A stretch of 32,000 bases of DNA, taken from contig NZ_RSDW01000001.1 of the NCBI RefSeq assembly GCF_003945235.1, positions 840,001-872,000 of the forward strand. The letters are read 5' to 3'. Positions within the stretch are counted from its first letter, which is position 1. Each line of letters begins with the position of its first letter. The position numbers and the translations under genes are program-made. Source of the DNA: Edaphobacter aggregans. Its GTDB lineage: Bacteria; Acidobacteriota; Terriglobia; Terriglobales; Acidobacteriaceae. Positions 1-23,625 of the stretch are shown here, in pieces. The notes under the pieces are model-generated. The model was given only the letters and a program-made list of their open reading frames with translations, was not told the origin of the DNA and did no database searches.

Positions 1-1
1 A

Positions 2-552
2 TGGCGAACCCTCAACACCGACTTCTCCAATTACTATCTGACCCGCGCTTCGACACAGCTTCCGTGGCGGCGGATAGTCCTCATCAACGTGTTTGAAATG
101 TCTTTCCTACCGAACGGAGATCTCATATTCACCGCAAGCTTAGGGAGACGGCCAGGCTTATTCACCACCGATCAGGCAGGAAGCATCAGATCCCTCGGCA
201 TGGATGACGGTCGCTATCCTTCCGTCTCGCCAGACGGCCATTGGCTCGCATCCAGCCACCTGCAGAGCGGAAACTAGAATCTTTGGCTCCGCAATCTGGA
301 CGGGCGGCCAAACGCACAGATTCACCGCCCCCCTGCAACAATATCGAACCCACCTGGACCACCGACTCGCAAACCTTGATTTACGCCAGCGACTGCGGGC
401 GAGCCCTTTGGTTTACCATACTTTGCAGACGCAACATCAACGGCGACAGTCCGGATTCGCATACTAAATCTGCAGAGACCTCCGCTGCCGAAGTTACCGC
501 ACCGAACCACACCATTCCCGTCGCCCTTGACTCCACCCCAATCCGCCATTAA
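2..552 (+). pseudogene. 3' portion of a TolB/WD40-like beta-propeller repeat gene, disrupted by an in-frame TAG at 275-277 and a frame change around 296-330
   Basis: Frame 2 is open from the window edge (..FLPNGDLIFTA..RYPSVSPDGHWLASSHLQSGN*) and continues NLWLRNLDG after the stop. The TAG sits where this repeat type normally has Trp (SGNW-x-LW), consistent with TGG>TAG. The family-like continuation CNNIEPTWTTDSQTLIYASDCGRALWF is in frame 1 and ends at TAA 550-552. Confidence 0.5.
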
Positions 553-741
553 GCTTTAAGCAATGGCGATTCTCCGCACCTTGCGCTCCTCAGCCTGTCG
601 CATGTGTTGTTGCGACCCTGTGCGCCGTCGCCTTTGCCTCGATTCGTAGACTTCCAAGTCCCGAACATCCCAGCAAAGTCACACAGCGCCCACCTACCCA
701 GTGGGCCTTTCTTATTTCTGGCCGACCCAAAGGATTCCATC

Positions 742-2466
742 ATGTCCACCACACCAGCACCGGTAGTCAAAGAAACCAAGGCCCAGCGCTCCGAACGCCT
801 CAAGCTCGCCAAAAATCCCTGGGAAGCCTGGGACGAGGTCCGCGAGTTCGCCCGCAACGGCCGCGACACCGTACTGCCCGAATGGACCGGCCTCTACTTC
901 AAGTGGTGGGGCGTCTACACCCAGGGCGACGGCCTCGGTGTCACCGGCGGAGCCAACGGCGAAGGCAAAGCCACCGAGTTTTTCATGATGCGCATCGGCC
1001 TCCCCAACGGCATTCTCACCAGTGAGCAGACCCGCGTCATCGGCCAGCTCACCAAAAAGTACGCCCGCAACCTCGCCGACATTACCACCCGCCAGAACAT
1101 CCAGCTCCACTGGCTCACCCTCTCCGGACTCGTCGAAGTAGTCGACGCCCTCACCGCCGTCGGCCTCTCTCCCAAGGGAGCCTGCGGAGACGTCGTCCGC
1201 AACGTCACCGGCTGCCCCCTCGCTGGACTCGACCACACCGAACTCATCGACTCCAGCCCCCTCGCCGTCGAAATCGCCCACCACCTCACGGCAAACCCGG
1301 AGTTCTACAACCTCCCGCGCAAGTTCAAGATCTCCGTCACCGGCTGCCCCGTCTGGTGCACCTACCCCGAGATCAACGACGTAGCCCTCACCGCCATCAA
1401 GCGCACCGTCGATGGCAAGGAAGAGATCGGCTACACCCTCCGCGTAGGCGGCGGCCTCTCCACCGAGCCCCACATCGCCGAGCGCATCCCCGCCTTCATC
1501 CCGCAGGACAAGGCCCTCGAAGTCGTCACCGCCGTAGTCCGCATCTTCAAGGAGCAATCCGAGCTCCGCGAAAACCGCACCCGCGCCCGCATCAAGTACC
1601 TCTTCATGCGCCACGGCTGGACCGCCGAATCCTTCCTCGTCGCTCTCGAAGAAAAGCTCGACTACAAACTCGATCCCAACCCCGCATCCGCCGACACCGT
1701 CCCCGCCGACATCTACCGCGACCATGTCGGCATCACGTCGCAGCGCCAGCCCGGTCTCTCCTCCGTCGGAGCCTCCGTACTCAACGGACGTCTCTCAGGC
1801 GACCAGCTCATCGCCCTCGCCGACCTCGCCGACAAGTACGGCAACGGCCAGCTCCGCGCCACGATCGGCCAGAACATCCTCATCGTCAACGTCCCCGATC
1901 GCGAGACCGCGGCCCTCGTCATCGAGCTCAACACCCTCAACCTCCACGTCGACGTCTCGGCCTTCTGGCGCGGCGCCATCGCCTGCACCGGCACCGAGTT
2001 CTGTAAGCTCGCCATCGCCGAGACCAAGGGCTTCAACAAGTGGCTCGTCAACGAACTCGAAGACCGCCTCCCCGGCTTCGACCAGCAGATCCGCCTCCAC
2101 GTCACCGGCTGCACCAACTCTTGCGGTCAGCACTGGATCGCCGACATAGGCCTGGAGGGCAAAAAAATCAAGAAGGACGGCCAAATGGTCGACGCCTTCT
2201 TCTTCTGCGTAGGCGGCTCCGTCGGCAAGTACGCCCGCCCAGCCCGTCCCCTCGGCTACCGCGTAGCCGCCACCGAGGTCCCCGACGCCATCGAGCGTCT
2301 CCTCACCGGCTACCTTGCCGTCCGCACCCCCGGCGAAGACCTCCGCTCCTACTTCGACCGCACCACCGACGACACCCTCCGCGCCCAGCTAGCCGGAGCC
2401 ATCATCGATCCCGTCGAACGCGACGCCCCACCCGTAGGAGCAGGCCACCTCGCCCCCGGCGAATAA
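742..2466 (+). CDS. sir: ferredoxin-dependent sulfite/nitrite reductase hemoprotein (NirA/Sir family)
   Basis: The 620-aa ORF has siroheme/4Fe-4S Cys motifs: C-x5-C in ACTGTEFC and C-x3-C in GCTNSC. Siroheme biosynthesis genes lie downstream. I chose ATG 742 (MSTTPAP..), which has AAGGA 8 nt upstream, over the GTG 604 used in the track. Confidence 0.9.
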   Translation: MSTTPAPVVKETKAQRSERLKLAKNPWEAWDEVREFARNGRDTVLPEWTGLYFKWWGVYTQGDGLGVTGGANGEGKATEFFMMRIGLPNGILTSEQTRVIGQLTKKYARNLADITTRQNIQLHWLTLSGLVEVVDALTAVGLSPKGACGDVVRNVTGCPLAGLDHTELIDSSPLAVEIAHHLTANPEFYNLPRKFKISVTGCPVWCTYPEINDVALTAIKRTVDGKEEIGYTLRVGGGLSTEPHIAERIPAFIPQDKALEVVTAVVRIFKEQSELRENRTRARIKYLFMRHGWTAESFLVALEEKLDYKLDPNPASADTVPADIYRDHVGITSQRQPGLSSVGASVLNGRLSGDQLIALADLADKYGNGQLRATIGQNILIVNVPDRETAALVIELNTLNLHVDVSAFWRGAIACTGTEFCKLAIAETKGFNKWLVNELEDRLPGFDQQIRLHVTGCTNSCGQHWIADIGLEGKKIKKDGQMVDAFFFCVGGSVGKYARPARPLGYRVAATEVPDAIERLLTGYLAVRTPGEDLRSYFDRTTDDTLRAQLAGAIIDPVERDAPPVGAGHLAPGE

Positions 2467-2536
2467 TTTTCAAACCGACATCTGTCATCGAATTGAATAG
2501 CCTGCTTGCTATCATCAAGTTCGTTAGCAAGTTCCC

Positions 2537-3460
2537 ATGAAATTTATCTGCCTATTTTCTCTCCTTCTCTCTGCTTTGGGCTGTAACAACCGCATAACGA
2601 GTGCGCACGTACTTAGCTCAAATCATGCGACCACCTCGACCGTGAGCACGGGAAAGGAGGGAGATGCAGTATTTCCTGTCGTCGATAATGGCAAGTTTTA
2701 CGTCCTTCCCGATTACCACGCAGACGACGAGAAGGCTGTAAACCTGACGCTAACCGAACACATCGTGACCCAGGTTCGCACTGATCAGGAGTGCTGTTCT
2801 TCCGAGATAACGTTGACAGAATCGATCAACGACAAACCCACGTGGATCTTGAAAAAGAAAGCGACCCGCGCCGACATGTTCGATCGTTTCTACCGAACAG
2901 TCTCTCCAGGATGCTGCGGTTCCGCGACCCGCTATGCCTATTTTGATCTCCTTACCGGGAACCAGTCTTATATCGCCACAGAACCAATCGCATCTCTGGG
3001 ACTCGTAGGGAGCTTCACACTCTCGCGCTATCTCGCTCTTAACCGTTTGAGTGAGCCAGGTGACGAGTTGTTCGTCCTTCAAATTCAGTACGGTCCGCAA
3101 TCCGGCCCGAGCCAGATCGCATACCTTACCCGTTCTGGCGAAGACATTGCAGCCGACTCCACCACCGTGCAGTACTTCAAAGACGGAAAACTCGAACCAA
3201 GCACAATATCGGGGCAGGACGGAACATTTCCAATTGATTTCATCCTGTTCCCTCCCGGATATCCGTCCAATACTCATGTCTCCAAAGACGATATAAACGG
3301 ATTGTCATTCGTACTCAATGTAGAGGGCAGCCATCTCATTAAAATTCCCTTGATCAAAGACCATCTCGACTTCAGTCACGCCGTACTTCCAAAGGGCTTC
3401 CAGATTAGCGAAGCTTTGCCTGCTGGCTTCGAAAAATATCTTCAGGAAATTCGTCAATAA
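2537..3460 (+). CDS. hypothetical lipoprotein (signal peptide ending LSALGC)
   Basis: The 307-aa ORF has an N-terminus MKFICLFSLLLSALGCNN that resembles a lipoprotein signal with a lipobox Cys. It contains two CC pairs (QECCSSE, SPGCCGS). I recognise no family. GC and codon usage are visibly lower than in both flanking genes. Confidence 0.6.
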   Translation: MKFICLFSLLLSALGCNNRITSAHVLSSNHATTSTVSTGKEGDAVFPVVDNGKFYVLPDYHADDEKAVNLTLTEHIVTQVRTDQECCSSEITLTESINDKPTWILKKKATRADMFDRFYRTVSPGCCGSATRYAYFDLLTGNQSYIATEPIASLGLVGSFTLSRYLALNRLSEPGDELFVLQIQYGPQSGPSQIAYLTRSGEDIAADSTTVQYFKDGKLEPSTISGQDGTFPIDFILFPPGYPSNTHVSKDDINGLSFVLNVEGSHLIKIPLIKDHLDFSHAVLPKGFQISEALPAGFEKYLQEIRQ

Positions 3461-3866
3461 CCGTCCCTTGTCTCTTCTGCGAGGGGTGCCCCACTGGCGC
3501 ATACAAATCTTTTCTAACCCAGCCCCTCTGCACCCACACCTTGTAACTCCTGTCAAGCCCCCAAACTCTAGTCCATCACAAATCCCCAACAAAGACGTAC
3601 CCTTCCTCACCCCACAAACTTTGCCGAATCACCCTCATTCAACTCGTACAATAGAAGTAGCTACCAAGACAGCGAAGAATCGGAGGCTCCGCTGTCGACC
3701 ACCCATAACTACCCTGAATCGAATACTTTGCAGAACACGGACCCAGTAAAATCAGGACTTCCAGACCTGAACCAACTCGAAACCCAGACTTAACTATAAT
3801 ATTTAGAATACTTTACGCGAAAGCAAGGGGATGGGGCACCCTGTCCATCCAAACCGGAGAACCAAG

Positions 3867-17487: not shown

Positions 17488-17660
17488 TTTGAGAATCCTT
17501 CCGGCCAGCTCCGAATAAGCTCGAAGAGCCCGCCCACGGCTTCCACTAGTCTATCGCCTTTCGGACCTTCGCCATGTCGGACACCCCGTATCTGCTTGAC
17601 GAGCCTTCCCCCCAGGCAGATACTTCTCCAAATTCATCTCCCATTTTGCGAGGCAGGTCC

Positions 17661-18560
17661 ATGAATGTGCAGTCCGCAATCAACGCAGGCCTCTTCGTTC
17701 AATTTGTCGCAAACACCTGGCAGGATGCCACCGGGAAAAACGCCGACCTCGACGACCGCCCTATCCTAAACACCACCGGCCAGCCCATCATCCCAGGCAA
17801 AAACTACACCGTTCTCAAGACCCTCTACGCCTGCGACCTCGCCACCGATATCCATCCAAACCGTCCATGCGACGACGGCTGGAAGACCATGGGCATCCTG
17901 GCCACAAACGACAACGACCCCAACGATGTCTTCATCGCCATACGCGGCACCCTTACCATCTGGGAGTGGATCCAGGACGTAAAATTCTTCCCAAAACCTT
18001 TTTCCAATGTCACCGGCAGTGGACTAACCGAAGACGGCTTCACCGACATGTACCAATCGTTCTCCCTTAAACCATCCGCCAATCCAGGAGTCTTCATCAA
18101 CGATCTGATCGCGCTTATCCCGGCGCAGGCGACAGTCACCGTTACAGGCCACAGCCTCGGAGCAGCCATCGCCACCCTCTTTGCGCTTGACCTCGCCGCC
18201 CACTCCAAATTCCCACTCACGGTCTATACCCTCGCCAGCCCCCGCGTAGGCGATCTCACATTCCACAATGTCTTTGACTCCACAATCCTCAATGCCTTCC
18301 GAGTCGTCAATCGGCTAGATATCGTCCCCAAAACACCTCCGCCCCCTTTGTACATTCACGTGGGCGACGAGAGCGAACTCGTTCCAAAAGGACAAGTGAG
18401 CCCAACCATTCCCTGCGAGCACCATCTCACGACCTATCTCAACCTGCTCGCCACCGAAATAGGAACACAAGCCAGCTATCCCATCGAGGCTGATTGTGTA
18501 CCAGGAGCAAAAGCTATCCCCCTGACAAATCCCAGAGCATCGACCCCCGCTCAAGTCTGA
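17661..18560 (+). CDS. class 3 lipase (alpha/beta hydrolase)
   Basis: The nucleophile elbow is VTVTGHSLGAAIATLFALDLA, and the downstream RVVNRLDIVP is typical of the Lipase_3 family. ATG 17661 has GAGG 7 nt upstream. The alternative ATG 17574 has no SD. Confidence 0.8.
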   Translation: MNVQSAINAGLFVQFVANTWQDATGKNADLDDRPILNTTGQPIIPGKNYTVLKTLYACDLATDIHPNRPCDDGWKTMGILATNDNDPNDVFIAIRGTLTIWEWIQDVKFFPKPFSNVTGSGLTEDGFTDMYQSFSLKPSANPGVFINDLIALIPAQATVTVTGHSLGAAIATLFALDLAAHSKFPLTVYTLASPRVGDLTFHNVFDSTILNAFRVVNRLDIVPKTPPPPLYIHVGDESELVPKGQVSPTIPCEHHLTTYLNLLATEIGTQASYPIEADCVPGAKAIPLTNPRASTPAQV

Positions 18561-18805
18561 CCCGCAGTTCAAAAATGAACCTGGCCCTCCTAGCTTCGGG
18601 CACATTGAAAATGTGAAACAAAAACTGTTTGATTTTCTGCCCCTGAGCGTAGCGAACGGAGAAGACCCCCGTATTTCGCTTTGTCTTTGCTGTCGTTCGT
18701 TCCTTGGTTCTCTAGATCAACCAAATTTCCTCTAGCCTCGGGCCTTCTCTTCAAGCTCCACGAATCACCACCTTCAACCATCGAACCCAATCGCCCCTAC
18801 ACCCG

Positions 18806-18820
18806 CTCTGCTAGCATCGA
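18806..18820 (+). promoter_or_regulatory. second copy of the 15-mer CTCTGCTAGCATCGA, upstream of kdsD
   Basis: It is identical to 8727-8741 and ends 15 nt before ATG 18836. Confidence 0.3.
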
Positions 18821-18835
18821 CATGGTCCGGTAACC

Positions 18836-19852
18836 ATGTCCAACACACCCGCCAACCCGGCAGACCCCCTTCTCCCCTCCGACTTCGTCCGCATCGAAGT
18901 CGCCGCCCTCAACGAGCTAGCTCTCCGCCTCGACGGCCCCATGCTCGCCCCCTTCACCCAGGCCGTCAATCTCCTCCTCCGATCCGCCATCACGCAGAAC
19001 CGCATCATCGTCACCGGCATTGGCAAAAGCGGCATCATCGCTCGCAAGATCGCAGCCACCCTTCGCTCCACCGGAACACCTGCCCATTATCTCCACCCGG
19101 CTGACGCCCTCCACGGCGATCTCGGCATGCTCTCCCGCGGCGACACCGTCCTCGCCCTCTCCGCCAGCGGCGAAACCGAGGAGCTCCTACGCCTCCTTCC
19201 CCTCCTCAAGCGCCTCGCCGACAAGCTCATCACCCTCTGTGGCTGCGCCACCTCTACCCTCGCCCAAGCCAGCGACATCACCCTCGACACCAGCGTCTCC
19301 GTCGAAGCCTGCCCCCTCAATCTCGCCCCCACAGCCTCCACCACCGTCATGCTCGCCCTCGGCGACGCCCTCGCCCTCGAAGTAAGCCGTCGCCGAGGCT
19401 GGAAGGCCGAAGACTTCGCCGAACTCCACCCCGGAGGCCGCCTTGGCAAACGCCTGGCCCGCGTCCGCGACCTCATGCACTCCGGCGATGCCCTCCCGCA
19501 AGTCTCCCCAGCCACGCCCATGCCCCAAGTCATCTACGAGATGTCCCGCAAAAAACTAGGCATGACCACAGTCCTCTCTATCGAAGACAGCAACGCCGGC
19601 CAACTCCTCGGCATGATCAGCGACGGAGACCTACGCCGCCTCCTCGAGCGCGACGGCCCCCACGCCCTCGAGCGCACCGCCGGCGAGATCATGAACCCCA
19701 ACCCCCTCACCATCGACGCGAACGCCTTCGCCTCCTCGGCCCTCGCCCTCATGGAAGAAAAGAAAATCACCTCGCTGATCGTCACCACCCCCAACGGCCA
19801 AGCAGAAGGCGTCCTGCACCTGCACGACCTCTGGACCCTCGAACTCATCTAG
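18836..19852 (+). CDS. kdsD: KpsF/GutQ-family arabinose-5-phosphate isomerase
   Basis: The protein has a SIS domain (VTGIGKSGIIARKIAATLRSTGTPAHYLHPADALHGDLG) followed by two CBS-like repeats. Confidence 0.9.
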   Translation: MSNTPANPADPLLPSDFVRIEVAALNELALRLDGPMLAPFTQAVNLLLRSAITQNRIIVTGIGKSGIIARKIAATLRSTGTPAHYLHPADALHGDLGMLSRGDTVLALSASGETEELLRLLPLLKRLADKLITLCGCATSTLAQASDITLDTSVSVEACPLNLAPTASTTVMLALGDALALEVSRRRGWKAEDFAELHPGGRLGKRLARVRDLMHSGDALPQVSPATPMPQVIYEMSRKKLGMTTVLSIEDSNAGQLLGMISDGDLRRLLERDGPHALERTAGEIMNPNPLTIDANAFASSALALMEEKKITSLIVTTPNGQAEGVLHLHDLWTLELI

Positions 19853-19922
19853 AGCCGACACGATTCGCAAGAGCGAATTCAATCCATGTGCGGTGCTAGG
19901 CTAGGATGGAAGCCCCTTGCCC

Positions 19923-21176
19923 ATGAACGAAACAGTACTGATTCATCTCTCTGGTCCAAATCAACCGGGACTTACCGCGGTCCTGACCGCAATTCTGGCC
20001 AATTACCATGCCTGTGTGCTTGATATCGGGCAGGCTGTTGTCCATGAAACGCTTGTCCTTGGCCTTCTCATCGAGATCCCGCCCGACAATCTTCTCCACC
20101 TTCAAAACGCTCTGGTTGAAAAATCCAGTGAGTTGAACCTGCAGGTCAGTTTCAAGCCTGTAAGCAAATCAGATCTGGAGCATTGGATCTATTCGCAAGG
20201 AAAGGATCGCTTCATCATCACCATTCTCGGACGAGCGATCTCCGCGAACCATCTTGCCCGGGTGAGCGCCATCATCGAGGAGCATGGCCTGAACGTGGAC
20301 CGCATCGAACGACTCTCCGGAAGGAGATCGCTTGCGGTGCATAGCTCCAAATCAAATGCTTGTGTCGAGTTGCATGCGAGCGGAAATGCTACTTCCGAAG
20401 CCTCCATGCGAGCCGATTTTCTTGCGACTGCCCATGATCTGCGAATTGACATCGCCTTCCAGCGTGAGAGCATCTTCCGTCGCAACCGTCGCCTCTTCGC
20501 CTTCGACATGGATTCCACATTGATCCAGGGCGAAGTCATCGACGAACTAGCAAAGATGGCAGGAGTAGCCGATAAGGTGGTGGCTATTACCGAATCAGCC
20601 ATGCGCGGCGAGATCGAATTCCAGGAGAGCTTCAGACGGCGCGTATCGTTGCTGCGCGGACTTCCAGAGCAGAAGGTGCATGAACTACTGGGGACGATTC
20701 CTCTGGTCGAGGGAGCAGAGCAGTTAATTAGCACGCTCAAGTTGCTTGGTTATAAGACGGCAATCCTATCGGGAGGCTTCACTTTCTTCGCCCGGAATCT
20801 ACAGCAGCGCCTGGGAATCGACTATGTATTCGCCAACGAACTGGACATCGTCGACGGTAAGGTCAGCGGGCAAGTCAAGACCGAGATCGTGGATGGTGCA
20901 CGAAAGGCCGAATTGTTGCGCCAGATTGCCCGCAAAGAGAATATTTCGCTCGAGCAAGTGGTTGCAGTAGGCGACGGGGCCAACGATCTCCCCATGCTCG
21001 GAATAGCAGGAATGGGCATCGCCTTCCGGGCAAAACCCATCGTTCGGCAAACAGCTGGCCATGCGGTCTCGTTTCTGGGACTGGACAGCCTGCTCTATTT
21101 GATCGGGGTGCGAGATCGGGATTTTGATGAATTTCTATCGACTTCTCTCGAGAGGAGGGATTCATTCCAAACATAA
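19923..21176 (+). CDS. serB: phosphoserine phosphatase with an N-terminal ACT-type regulatory region
   Basis: The HAD motifs are FAFDMDSTLIQGEVIDELA and VGDGANDLPML. An N-terminal extension of about 190 aa resembles the long SerB forms. ATG 19923 is preferred over TTG 19917. Confidence 0.9.
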   Translation: MNETVLIHLSGPNQPGLTAVLTAILANYHACVLDIGQAVVHETLVLGLLIEIPPDNLLHLQNALVEKSSELNLQVSFKPVSKSDLEHWIYSQGKDRFIITILGRAISANHLARVSAIIEEHGLNVDRIERLSGRRSLAVHSSKSNACVELHASGNATSEASMRADFLATAHDLRIDIAFQRESIFRRNRRLFAFDMDSTLIQGEVIDELAKMAGVADKVVAITESAMRGEIEFQESFRRRVSLLRGLPEQKVHELLGTIPLVEGAEQLISTLKLLGYKTAILSGGFTFFARNLQQRLGIDYVFANELDIVDGKVSGQVKTEIVDGARKAELLRQIARKENISLEQVVAVGDGANDLPMLGIAGMGIAFRAKPIVRQTAGHAVSFLGLDSLLYLIGVRDRDFDEFLSTSLERRDSFQT

Positions 21177-21615
21177 GCATTTTGTAATCAGCATTATGCC
21201 AATGCTCATTTGAGATATGCCTCCACTTTGACTCTGGTTTACGGTCCCGGCTTCGCTTCCCGTCGCGACGGCTCTTCCGGAGCTCTGCCAAACCCCGCGA
21301 ATCACCCCCTGCACTTTAATTACGTGTCCGAAGATGTCCAATTTCCGCTCATTGATCTGCGACTACACGCCACTGTTCCTCAAGGACGCCGCCGTTGCAG
21401 CCATTTGCATCTACCCCTTGACACCGCGATAAAGAACTCTGTAATTTCCCTCCTGCCACTTGTTGTCCGCTGGGCGTGATCCGAATCGACGTTCAGTTAC
21501 CCGGGCCCTTTGCTAGATGGTCGGGACAGGGCAAGGTCCTCATCTCCTCTGAGTTTTCTTCTTCTCCCTTCGATCGCGTACCTGCGTGAGGAAGGCTCCT
21601 GTCAGGAGGAACGAA

Positions 21616-22350
21616 ATGAAAGCGTTCAAGTTGCGAGAGCTGATGATCCATGTGCAGCCAGCTATTCCATGTAATTTGCCAAACACAATAATCTGCCAAG
21701 CAGCCTGCTCCGTGGTGGCAAACACCGTAATCTGTCAGGCAGCCTGCTCCGTGGTGGCAACGGCATGCCATCCTTGCACGGCTGTACACACCTGCGCCGG
21801 CTGCAGTGTAGTTGCCTGCACTGCACATCCGTGCAGCGCCTTTGCATGCAGTGCCAATGCATGCAGCGCTTTCCCGTGCAGCGCACATCCCTGCAGTGCC
21901 AATGCATGCAGTGCGTTTCCATGCAGTGCTCACCCGTGCAGCGTTAATGTGTGCAGCGTTCATCCGTGCAGCGTTAATGTGTGCAGTGCAGTCGCTTGCA
22001 GTGCTGCCGTTGCATGCAGTGCTCGGGTCTGCACCGCTGCAGTAACTGTGATCTGCAATGTCCCTGCAAGCATCTGTGGGGCAGTAACTGTAACTCCGCC
22101 GATCGACATCGATCCTGGCGGTCCAGTGGAATCGATAGCCAACCTCGCAGCGCTGAAAGCACAGCTCAAACAGCAACTCGCCGCTGTTGAAGAGCAGGAA
22201 AAATCTGTCGGAGAAAGTCTGAAGCCTCAGACCGTCGCCGAAGTCGATGACCTTCAGGCAAAGCTGCAAGGAGCTATAGAAGAGCTAAAGGCTCGTCGCG
22301 CCGAACTTGAGAAGCAGGAAAAGAGCAAAGGAAAGGAGCCTGCAAAATAA
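21616..22350 (+). CDS. 244-aa Cys/Ser-rich pentad-repeat protein with a C-terminal charged helical tail; candidate RiPP (lanthipeptide-type) substrate
   Basis: AGGAGG (21604-21609) lies 6 nt upstream of ATG 21616. There are 26 Cys between residues 19 and 154, with 13 consecutive [S/T]-x3-C pentads. Repeat copies differ only at synonymous sites in this frame. The gene is on the same strand as, and 52 nt upstream of, the two enzyme genes. Confidence 0.75.
   Translation: MKAFKLRELMIHVQPAIPCNLPNTIICQAACSVVANTVICQAACSVVATACHPCTAVHTCAGCSVVACTAHPCSAFACSANACSAFPCSAHPCSANACSAFPCSAHPCSVNVCSVHPCSVNVCSAVACSAAVACSARVCTAAVTVICNVPASICGAVTVTPPIDIDPGGPVESIANLAALKAQLKQQLAAVEEQEKSVGESLKPQTVAEVDDLQAKLQGAIEELKARRAELEKQEKSKGKEPAK
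21682..21759 (+). repeat. tandem 39-bp in-frame duplication (NTIICQAACSVVA / NTVICQAACSVVA)
   Basis: Units 21682-21720 and 21721-21759 differ at 4 of 39 nt: three synonymous changes and one Ile/Val change. Confidence 0.9.
21805..22032 (+). repeat. 15-bp-period coding repeat array ([S/T]-x3-C pentads) with 45-bp and 30-bp higher-order units
   Basis: The array encodes SVVAC TAHPC SAFAC SANAC SAFPC SAHPC SANAC SAFPC SAHPC SVNVC SVHPC SVNVC SAVAC, then SAAVAC and SARVC. The 45-bp units 21850-21894 and 21895-21939 encode identical peptides with 8 third-position differences. Confidence 0.9.
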
Positions 22351-22402
22351 AAGGAAAAGAATCAGTTAAATCATCGGCCAACGGGCCACTTGGAACCTTC
22401 TG

Positions 22403-23623
22403 ATGGATGGCGGCCGTAACAGCACGAGTGTTGTTCCCCTGCGCGACATCCTGGCGGCGAACTTCTGCGCCAACCGGGAATACACACTCGTCTTGTTTGA
22501 CCGCCTTCCTTCCGATCAGCAGGAGCTTCTCCGCGATCTGACCAAAGATCCTGAGTTTTACGGCGTACTCCTTCCGCCCTCAAACACACAGCGCAAGCCC
22601 AAATCCACATGTCAGAGCACGGCTCTGCTTCTCTACTCTCTGATGGAGCCTGGTCCCATTCCCGCCTACGTCCAGGCCACACTTGGTGCCAGTGCGAATC
22701 AAGCTATCGCCGAGCTCGTCCTCGATGAGGTCCTCATGATCGAGCACGAGGGTGCATTTGTCTGCGGCAGCGCAGCCTACGATCTTCTTTACAGCGAGCC
22801 ACATTCTCACCAAACCCCTACCGCGCTCTCCGATCTCACACGCAGCGCTCTCGAGTACGGGCAGATGCTCGGCCTCGAAGATCCCACTATGCTCTCCGCG
22901 CGCCTCTACGCCTACAACCGCGTTCCTTTATCCCCTCGCTGGAAGCGCCTTCTCCCCGATCGAGACGGCGCGGCAAAGTGGCTCGGCATCGACCGCAAAG
23001 GAGAGCTGCGCCCCCTGCTTGATGATCGATGGGAACTCATCGCTCCATCCGCCGAGATGGAGGGCTGGTTCCAATGGTCTCCGCGGTCCAAACCGCCCCG
23101 CAACGGGGACACCGAAACAGGCTACAAACTTTACGTAAGCCCCACCCCCGAGGTCACGCAACAAGCCTTCAAGGCCGTCGTCGACTGCCTTGCCAACTCC
23201 GAAGCCTACCACTTTAAAGCCGGCGACGATGGATATGGCCTGCTCCGCCCCGATAAGATCGTCCTCTACTTCCGAAGCTTCGCCGCCCTCGAGAAAGTCG
23301 CACACAGCATCGCCGAATGCCTTCCCGGCTGCCCGGCCCAAGGGGTGCCCTTCACGGCCGCCTTCAACGGCAGCAGACTTCTCTCCTGGGGGGTTGATCC
23401 CCCTCGCCAAAGCGGCGTTCTCGCGTGGCAGGAGCGTGAAAGCTGGCGCCTTTGGATCACCAACCGCATCGCCGTCGCCATGATCGCTGCCAGCCAATCC
23501 CAGAATGGCCGCCTCGCTCCGTGGCGTTTTGCCCTCGAACGTCTTCGCCTCGATGCAATCGACACTGACACCTGGACGCCACTCGCAGCATTTGGACACG
23601 CACCTGCAATGGAGGCGAACTAG
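22403..23623 (+). CDS. 406-aa protein of unknown family; candidate stand-alone lyase/adaptor of the operon
   Basis: The ORF is intact and ends 2 nt before the next start. It carries YKLYVSP (res 241-247) and FKAGDDGYGLLRPDKIVLYF (res 271-290), which I associate from memory only with HopA1-type / lanthipeptide lyase-type domains. There is no obvious SD at ATG 22403. Confidence 0.8.
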   Translation: MDGGRNSTSVVPLRDILAANFCANREYTLVLFDRLPSDQQELLRDLTKDPEFYGVLLPPSNTQRKPKSTCQSTALLLYSLMEPGPIPAYVQATLGASANQAIAELVLDEVLMIEHEGAFVCGSAAYDLLYSEPHSHQTPTALSDLTRSALEYGQMLGLEDPTMLSARLYAYNRVPLSPRWKRLLPDRDGAAKWLGIDRKGELRPLLDDRWELIAPSAEMEGWFQWSPRSKPPRNGDTETGYKLYVSPTPEVTQQAFKAVVDCLANSEAYHFKAGDDGYGLLRPDKIVLYFRSFAALEKVAHSIAECLPGCPAQGVPFTAAFNGSRLLSWGVDPPRQSGVLAWQERESWRLWITNRIAVAMIAASQSQNGRLAPWRFALERLRLDAIDTDTWTPLAAFGHAPAMEAN

Positions 23624-23625
23624 CC

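Follow-up and report, generated by a model that had tools for sequence, protein, structure and literature searches.

A putative split lanthipeptide synthetase encoded beside a protein-sized, cysteine-repeat precursor in Edaphobacter aggregans

In nisin, rings A and B have the spacings S-x3-C and T-x2-C, respectively, and ring B begins right after the Cys of ring A. Class IV lanthipeptide synthetases (LanL), such as VenL of venezuelin, are single trifunctional polypeptides that carry an N-terminal OspF-like domain and a kinase fused upstream of a zinc LanC domain. In class V systems, such as CaoK-CaoY of cacaoidin and LxmK-LxmY of lexapeptide, a stand-alone HopA1-like lyase is combined with a stand-alone APH-type kinase, and there is no LanC. 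Most lanthipeptide bridges connect a Cys to a preceding Ser or Thr at least three residues away, and known lanthipeptides contain at most seven bridges (PMC11251773). Here we describe a locus that resembles classes IV and V in part. It lies in a 32,000-nucleotide stretch of the Edaphobacter aggregans genome (contig NZ_RSDW01000001.1, positions 840,001 to 872,000), referred to below as the window, on which all coordinates of this locus are based. A gene for a 244-residue Cys-rich protein is followed there by genes for a LanY/HopA1-like protein and a kinase-LanC fusion. A preliminary description of the Cys-rich repeat had proposed that it could form a ladder of lanthionine rings. The likeliest reading of the sequences and predicted folds is that the two downstream genes encode a split lanthipeptide synthetase whose substrate is a precursor of protein size.

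The full-length precursor gene occupies 21616-22350 on the plus strand (244 codons plus stop), within an open frame that runs from 21586 to 22350. Translation from the ATG at 21616 gives the N-terminal motif common to all orthologues; a Shine-Dalgarno-like AGGAGG (21604-21609, plus strand) can be read directly in the sequence 6 nt before it. The encoded protein consists of this N-terminal motif, a core rich in Cys, Ser and Thr, and a C-terminal helical hairpin. Translation reproduced exactly the array that had been described, i.e., thirteen back-to-back [S/T]-x3-C pentads at residues 64-128 (SVVAC-TAHPC-SAFAC-SANAC-SAFPC-SAHPC-SANAC-SAFPC-SAHPC-SVNVC-SVHPC-SVNVC-SAVAC), followed by SAAVAC and SARVC. 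With residue 64 beginning at 21805 and residue 139 finishing at 22032, the Cys-every-fifth array spans 21805-22032. If TCAGC at residues 59-63 is included, the strict run counts 14 pentads and starts at 21790. Tandem Repeats Finder reported periods of 15, 30, 45 and 60. Upstream of the array, two 39-bp (base pair) units encode (P/A)NT(I/V)ICQAACSVV (21679-21756). The three synonymous changes and one Ile/Val change noted earlier for this duplication were found again, and when the unit is set to begin a codon further upstream, a Pro/Ala difference appears at the boundary.

The N-terminal motif MKAFKLRELMIHVQP (21616-21660; family consensus MKSFKLKDLMIQVQP, from the orthologue alignment) contains no Ser, Thr or Cys. 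It also heads the precursors at distant loci and is a candidate recognition segment. The core, delimited by its outermost Cys (residues 19-155, 137 residues), holds 26 Cys, 25 Ser plus Thr and 6 His, the rest being mostly Ala, Val and Pro. An AlphaFold2 model based on a 25-sequence alignment gave no secondary structure and a predicted local distance difference test score (pLDDT) below 50 for residues 12-33, 35-37 and 39-159. The charged C-terminal region was modeled as an amphipathic hairpin with helices at residues 170-201 and 207-238 (22123-22329) and block-mean pLDDT values of about 74-93, and this is the most conserved part of the protein. No signal peptide was recognized when the sequence was read. 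The protein also has a conserved DPGP linker, a possible place for cleavage. A Ser/Thr/Cys-rich core with a conserved candidate recognition sequence outside it, as expected of a lanthipeptide precursor, is thus present.

Comparison of its units indicates that the array is a genuine peptide repeat. Two 45-bp units (21850-21894 and 21895-21939) encode the identical 15-mer SANACSAFPCSAHPC and differ at eight nucleotides, all of them synonymous third codon positions, as the preliminary description had stated. This amounts to eight changes in about 9 synonymous sites and none in about 36 non-synonymous sites. In four of the five other frames the same differences would alter eight residues, and in the fifth they would alter three and place a stop codon in one of the units. 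A search of 5.8 billion proteins returned 25 direct homologues of the 244-residue protein, in which both termini are conserved, the hairpin most strongly. The pentad profile in the orthologues is S/T, A/V, N/H/V/F/R, P/A/V and C. Although the core varies, 20 orthologues retain 10-16 uninterrupted pentads and their insertions and deletions comprise whole pentads, so the frame-breaking indels that would have argued against a maintained array did not appear. The ratio of the proportions of non-synonymous and synonymous differences (pN/pS) was about 0.4 in the core versus about 0.15 in the C-terminal domain; because synonymous divergence between orthologues is saturated (pS about 0.75-0.9), these are pN/pS ratios only and not proper dN/dS values. 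As judged from the synonymous-only unit differences and the whole-pentad indels, the array is real, translated in the plus frame and under selection. The earlier view of a translated, selectively maintained repeat therefore holds, its register being kept while the repeat number varies.

The codon usage of the 15-mer pair has a pattern of its own. The two units agree over their first 17 nt, which cover SANAC and the beginning of the following Ser codon, and thereafter each non-Cys codon differs at its third base. The Cys codons in the pair are all TGC, and the whole precursor gene has 23 TGC and 3 TGT codons. The pS of the pair is about 0.89, above the usual saturation level. Such divergence could reflect selection against repeat identity at the DNA level, i.e., avoidance of slippage or recombination, in what is a small sample. 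An antisense open reading frame (ORF) of 258 residues (21493-22269, minus strand) overlaps the precursor gene and is explained most simply by the TGC/GCN-rich repeat, which leaves the opposite strand free of stop codons. No RNA family was found in the window with Rfam, and a promoter and terminator scan of 21100-27200 gave no plus-strand site, with counts that were not above those of shuffled controls.

Public databases hold only part of the precursor. RefSeq annotates a hypothetical protein of 100 residues (WP_125484011.1, 22048-22350, plus strand) that starts at an internal GTG at 22048, and leaves the first 144 residues, with the N-terminal motif and the whole Cys array, unannotated. The full-length protein was absent from a 15-billion-protein collection when queried with three candidate starts. 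Two family members, P0009 (138 residues) and P0317 (123 residues), look like similar truncations, and precursors of this kind may be overlooked or cut short by gene callers on a wider scale. The two downstream proteins are identical to Edaphobacter aggregans entries: WP_125484012.1 is labeled a hypothetical protein, and WP_125484013.1 a lanthionine synthetase LanC family protein / serine/threonine-protein kinase.

The second gene (22403-23623, plus strand) starts 52 nt downstream of the precursor gene and encodes a 406-residue protein (WP_125484012.1). No significant sequence match was found for it in Pfam, NCBIfam, PADLOC or the PDB with the single sequence, nor in the PDB with a 50-sequence profile; the weak Pfam match was to RamC_N (E = 0.034), and Pfam HopA1 was not matched. 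At 90% identity, its family falls into more than 2,291 clusters, each of them labeled hypothetical. The fold was more informative. An AlphaFold2 model built with 50 homologues (pLDDT 82, predicted TM-score 0.80) was compared with the PDB using Foldseek, and the best matches were HopA1 (4rsx, 4rsw; E = 3e-7) and LxmY of the lexapeptide dehydratase LxmKY (9dk1_B; E = 1.7e-6). These were followed by class III lyase domains (E = 3e-5 to 1e-3) and the phosphothreonine lyases OspF, SpvC and VirA (E about 1e-3), and the top 23 matches all belong to these four groups.

Four residues, K242, K272, R282 and Y289, are invariant in the 50 lyase homologues and lie on predicted strands. In the class V lyase CaoY the catalytic residues are K219, R229 and Y236, and CaoY R187 and SpvC K104 occupy a corresponding position (PMC9486802). 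The spacing of K272, R282 and Y289 (+10, +17) is the same as that of the CaoY residues, and K242 is found where CaoY has R187 and SpvC has K104. From this residue spacing we infer that K242, K272, R282 and Y289 are the catalytic residues. At the level of the predicted fold, the 406-residue protein is probably a stand-alone LanY/HopA1-like phospho-Ser/Thr lyase.

The third gene (23626-26067, plus strand) starts 2 nt past the lyase stop codon and encodes an 813-residue fusion of a kinase and a LanC-like cyclase (WP_125484013.1; Pfam Pkinase, E = 8.6e-20, and LANC_like, E = 2.8e-26). The kinase domain (residues 143-386, 24052-24783) is of the Hanks Ser/Thr type, with K154, E171, H249-x-D251, N256 and D275-F-G, and Pfam matched Pkinase far better than APH (8.6e-20 vs 1.6e-6). 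The cyclase domain (residues 450-811, 24973-26058) contains GAAH620G, WC684NG and LC728C729G, with H620 as the predicted catalytic His and C684, C728 and C729 as zinc ligands. Its zinc motif is thus CCG rather than CHG, a variant described as ProcM-like (PMC13509491). The catalytic residues of both domains are conserved in 67 of 90 family members. The best NCBIfam match of the protein was to class IV LanL (NF038150), at 131.6 bits against a cut-off of 650 and over model positions 233-804 only, a range that excludes LanL's N-terminal lyase domain; class III LanKC (NF038151) scored 81.1 bits against a cut-off of 575. Residues 1-140 (23626-24051) matched no family, the sole match being Sigma54_AID at E = 0.21, and this segment could be where the lyase or the precursor hairpin docks. 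Given the fold, domain and residue evidence for the two proteins, all three lanthionine-making activities appear to be encoded right after the Cys-rich gene. The elements expected at a lanthipeptide locus, i.e., dehydration machinery and a LanC-type cyclase with catalytic His and zinc ligands beside the precursor, are present as predicted activities.

All three genes are on the same strand, separated by 52 and 2 nt, and, judging from their conservation, the precursor gene is the first of a conserved three-gene operon. The order precursor, lyase, kinase-LanC recurs beside differing genes, such as those for cellulose synthase, RND efflux, MacB or a transposase. We found the cassette at 287 or more loci in species-representative genomes, mostly of Acidobacteriota, where carriers include Acidobacteriaceae, Bryobacterales, Thermoanaerobaculia, Terracidiphilus and Granulicella. 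Other carriers are Armatimonadota, Planctomycetota, Anaerolineae, Gemmatimonadota, Eremiobacterota, a metagenome-assembled genome (MAG) of Zoogloeaceae and two cultured Bacillus strains. A hidden Markov model of the hairpin detected an upstream ORF in 45 of 88 loci examined. At many of the other loci, an upstream ORF combines the N-terminal motif with a Cys/Thr repeat core and has a single, shorter amphipathic helix at its C-terminus. The hairpin domain itself was found with phmmer in 422 clusters at 50% identity, always C-terminal and in proteins of 57-316 residues. In more than 40 loci the frame is kept together with both the N-terminal motif and the C-terminal domain. PADLOC gave generic kinase matches only (PD-T4-6, mad6) and no assignment to a defence system.

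Some loci carry more than one precursor module. Bacillus cassettes are found in Bacillus sp. Xin1 (locus L060, 7769-8530 and 3285-3770) and Bacillus pfraonensis 70b (L055, 3510-3977). One of these ORFs (L060, 7769-8530) concatenates at least three modules, each with MFRTVDLAAN, a Cys/Thr core and LLSAMKDELKxALAKVEAQES. That each core is flanked by both elements argues that the N-terminal and C-terminal elements are both part of the functional unit. At two loci, L024 (2098-3900, an Armatimonadota MAG) and L014 (1-1140), a pair of tandem precursor genes with differing cores precedes one lyase gene; the L024 precursors, of about 290-306 residues, contain repeats of the CGACSHAxT type. It seems from this that the substrates of one enzyme set have been duplicated and have diversified.

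Cores across the family are hypervariable. They often consist of tandem repeats, and periods of 3, 4, 5, 7, 10 and 11 occur. The Edaphobacter aggregans core has period 5 (C-S-x3). Period 4 (C-T-x2) is found at L007, L012 and L023, period 3 (C-T-A) at L014 and L085, period 10 at L088 and period 11 at L081. Period 7 (CTPTPPD) occurs at L086, with related CTPSPP-type units at other Thermoanaerobaculia loci. The pairing of Cys with Ser or Thr persists while the repeat period changes. In 56 diverse members the Cys count is strongly correlated with the Ser plus Thr count (r = 0.90), the latter equals or exceeds the former in nearly every member, and C-[S/T] dipeptides were observed 561 times against 199.5 expected. 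Such coupling of about 1:1 at any repeat length is predicted by lanthionine formation and not by metal binding or a solenoid. The proposal of lanthionine chemistry, made initially for the array by itself, thus gains support from its context: an adjoining lyase, an intact kinase-LanC, conservation of the trio, and Ser plus Thr tracking Cys.

These observations suggest a three-step route. The Hanks-type kinase domain of the 813-residue protein would phosphorylate Ser and Thr in the core, the separate 406-residue lyase would remove the phosphate to leave dehydroalanine (Dha) or dehydrobutyrine, and the LanC domain, with a zinc site of three Cys ligands, would add neighbouring Cys thiols by Michael addition. 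Within the array of pentads, the simplest outcome would be a bond from each dehydrated Ser to the Cys at i+4, giving 13-15 contiguous, non-overlapping five-residue rings. Over the whole core, its 26 Cys and 25 Ser plus Thr would allow up to about 25 thioethers. The N-terminal motif and the C-terminal amphipathic hairpin would most likely act as enzyme-docking elements, as leader and follower. The relation between substrate and enzymes, the chemistry, the ring connectivity and the role of the termini are all what we infer from gene context, conserved residues and models. We consider it probable that the 244-residue protein is the substrate of a lanthionine-forming pathway. A contiguous i-to-i+4 ladder specifically is a possible outcome, which we put forward with more reserve.

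Several points weigh against this proposal. The enzymes score far under the curated LanL and LanKC cut-offs, and the fold match of the lyase is moderate (TM-scores of 0.37-0.55). In size, the precursor greatly exceeds those of known lanthipeptides, and its conservation is highest in the C-terminal part. The neighbourhoods compared share no gene for a protease, a transporter or immunity alongside the cassette, which is not typical of a bacteriocin cluster. The first Cys of the core (C19) has no upstream Ser or Thr. Finally, the S-x3-C pentads fit the rule that bridges span at least three residues and the period-3 C-T-A cores do not, so connectivity is perhaps not uniform across the family and may be other than a simple ladder.

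The last point leads to the alternative that survives best, in which the enzymes do modify the 244-residue protein and the product is not a simple i-to-i+4 ladder. Its bridges could be adjacent Cys(i)-Dha(i+1) rings, a ring type found in ring A of mersacidin, or overlapping or longer-range ones, or cyclization could be partial and leave free Dha or Cys. The array opens with a Cys (C63) and its last Cys is followed by Thr (C139-T140), as such connectivity would allow, and the period-3 cores of L014 and L085 cannot use the usual spacing of three or more (PMC11251773). The C-[S/T] dipeptide that stays constant across the family at any period (561 vs 199.5) also fits, but contiguous rings themselves create C-[S/T] junctions, and the dipeptide hence does not discriminate. 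Furthermore, the pentad array is perfectly regular with a Ser:Cys ratio of about 1:1, and S-x3-C and T-x2-C are the very spacings of nisin rings A and B. We regard a non-ladder product as unlikely.

The Cys content might alternatively point to a Cys/His-rich metal-binding or redox protein of the metallothionein type, with a linkage to the enzyme genes that is regulatory or unrelated to thioethers. Residues 19-155 have 26 Cys in 137 positions and 6 His, C-S-A-H-P-C units recur, AlphaFold2 predicted no fold, as expected of an apo-metallothionein, and the cassette is devoid of export and protease genes. However, one entire orthologue clade (P0014-P0020) has arrays without His, and neither the strict Ser/Thr after each Cys nor its coupling to Cys across the family (r = 0.90) has a role in metal binding. 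Dehydratase and cyclase genes always follow the precursor gene, and no metallothionein or other metal-binding family was matched in Pfam or NCBIfam. We consider a metallothionein quite improbable. Least credible of all is that the array is a structural repeat, either a disulfide-stabilized solenoid or a beta-helix like that of pentapeptide-repeat proteins, or else repeat DNA that is non-coding or coding in antisense. In favour are the five-residue period, the long antisense ORF (21493-22269, minus strand) and the lack of a RefSeq coding annotation over the array, but these are outweighed by the absence of a Pfam match to any repeat family, pentapeptide ones included, at E up to 10, an array pLDDT below 50, the reducing cytoplasm expected for a protein without a signal peptide, unit differences that are all synonymous in the plus-strand frame only, and the more than 40 loci that preserve both termini and the frame; the pentapeptide-repeat, solenoid and antisense-ORF readings were rejected on these grounds.

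The genes around the cassette in the window are housekeeping genes that are not conserved with it (17574-21176 and 27126-30884). Upstream are genes for a class 3 lipase, a KdsD-type arabinose-5-phosphate isomerase and SerB, and downstream is one for a 1,252-residue alpha-amylase-family protein. Two small ORFs (26172-26423 and 26513-26887) matched no family. At many loci from Thermoanaerobaculia and other Acidobacteriota (L034, L037, L040, L044-L046, L063, L065, L066, L070, L074, L076, L079 and L086), an extra protein of about 1,175-1,200 residues is encoded upstream of the precursor (plus strand, about 1-3600). It is kinase/LanC-like, but has Glu in place of the kinase Lys and has lost the His and Cys ligands of LanC (e.g., EDNDLSAL), and its C-terminal end is a TolB/PD40-like repeat region. 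This protein could be a paralogue that has degenerated or a partner of the class III kind.

If the proposed route is correct, the locus would extend lanthionine formation to a 244-residue protein and reveal a large family that current annotation has partly missed, mostly in soil Acidobacteriota that are hard to study. The modular repeat cores, with periods of 3-11, would offer a natural test bed for ring size and processivity of the cyclase, and the cultured source organism and two Bacillus isolates with related cassettes make the system directly testable. A more far-reaching possibility, which we consider rather unlikely, is a new class of lanthionine chemistry with proteins, and not small secreted peptides, as its substrates. 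The mature product would retain the hairpin and be a rigid, protease-proof rod of 13-25 contiguous rings on an oligomerizing helical domain. Its function would then be intracellular or structural (a scaffold, a defence factor or toxin, or a metal/redox device) and not that of a classical lantibiotic, with cores diversifying by repeat expansion in Acidobacteriota and at least six other phyla. The open-access literature that we searched contains no description of the cassette or its precursors; subscription-only papers were outside the search.

Among known peptides, nisin is the closest in spacing, because in its rings A and B, as in the array, each ring starts after the Cys of the previous one. 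Geobacillin I and elgicin have seven bridges, whereas the present polypeptide could hold 13-15 contiguous rings, with about 25 thioethers as the upper limit, which would at least double the known ceiling. CefA (NF038108), a ribosomal peptide that is modified after translation (RiPP), with Cys at each fifth residue, weakly matched residues 73-123 (E = 1e-4). The score was 22.2 bits against a cut-off of 30, and of the 65-position profile only the periodic part matched, in a comparison made by profile only; no description of CefA was found in the literature searched. The class II enzyme ProcM shares the CCG cyclase motif (PMC13509491), and the prochlorosin precursors likewise combine conserved recognition segments with hypervariable cores. 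However, ProcM belongs to the LanM enzymes, whose dehydratase domain is different, and it acts on precursors with long N-terminal leaders of the Nif11 type and short cores of few rings, which have neither tandem-repeat cores nor a C-terminal hairpin.

Compared with the kinase-dependent classes, the system has features of two of them. Class III LanKC does not fit, as zinc ligands are present, the array has no labionin motif and the profile score stays far below its cut-off; labionin chemistry was likewise rejected because Ser and Cys occur 1:1 and a Cys lies between every two Ser, which leaves no S-x2-S-x(2-5)-C. Class VI was ruled out because it denotes the streptococcal LanKCb, a different system. 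With class IV LanL the locus shares the kinase chemistry, a phospho-lyase, and a kinase fused upstream of a LanC that retains its zinc ligands. Unlike LanL, it is not a single trifunctional polypeptide and misses the NF038150 cut-off (131.6 vs 650 bits): the lyase is a separate HopA1/LanY-like gene, the zinc motif is CCG instead of CHG, and the 244-residue precursor carries a conserved C-terminal hairpin. With class V it shares, at the level of the fold only, the stand-alone HopA1-like lyase alongside a kinase, as well as the Lys/Arg/Tyr spacing. It departs from class V in that the kinase is of the Hanks type and fused to LanC, and in that the position of CaoY Arg187 is taken by Lys (K242), as in SpvC. 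The sequence evidence thus fits neither class IV nor class V membership, and the locus probably represents lanthipeptide biosynthesis with a new split architecture, in which protein-sized precursors carry two conserved flanks around repeat cores. If so, the combination of a LanY-type lyase with a Hanks kinase-LanC fusion would be a new synthetase architecture that bridges classes IV and V.

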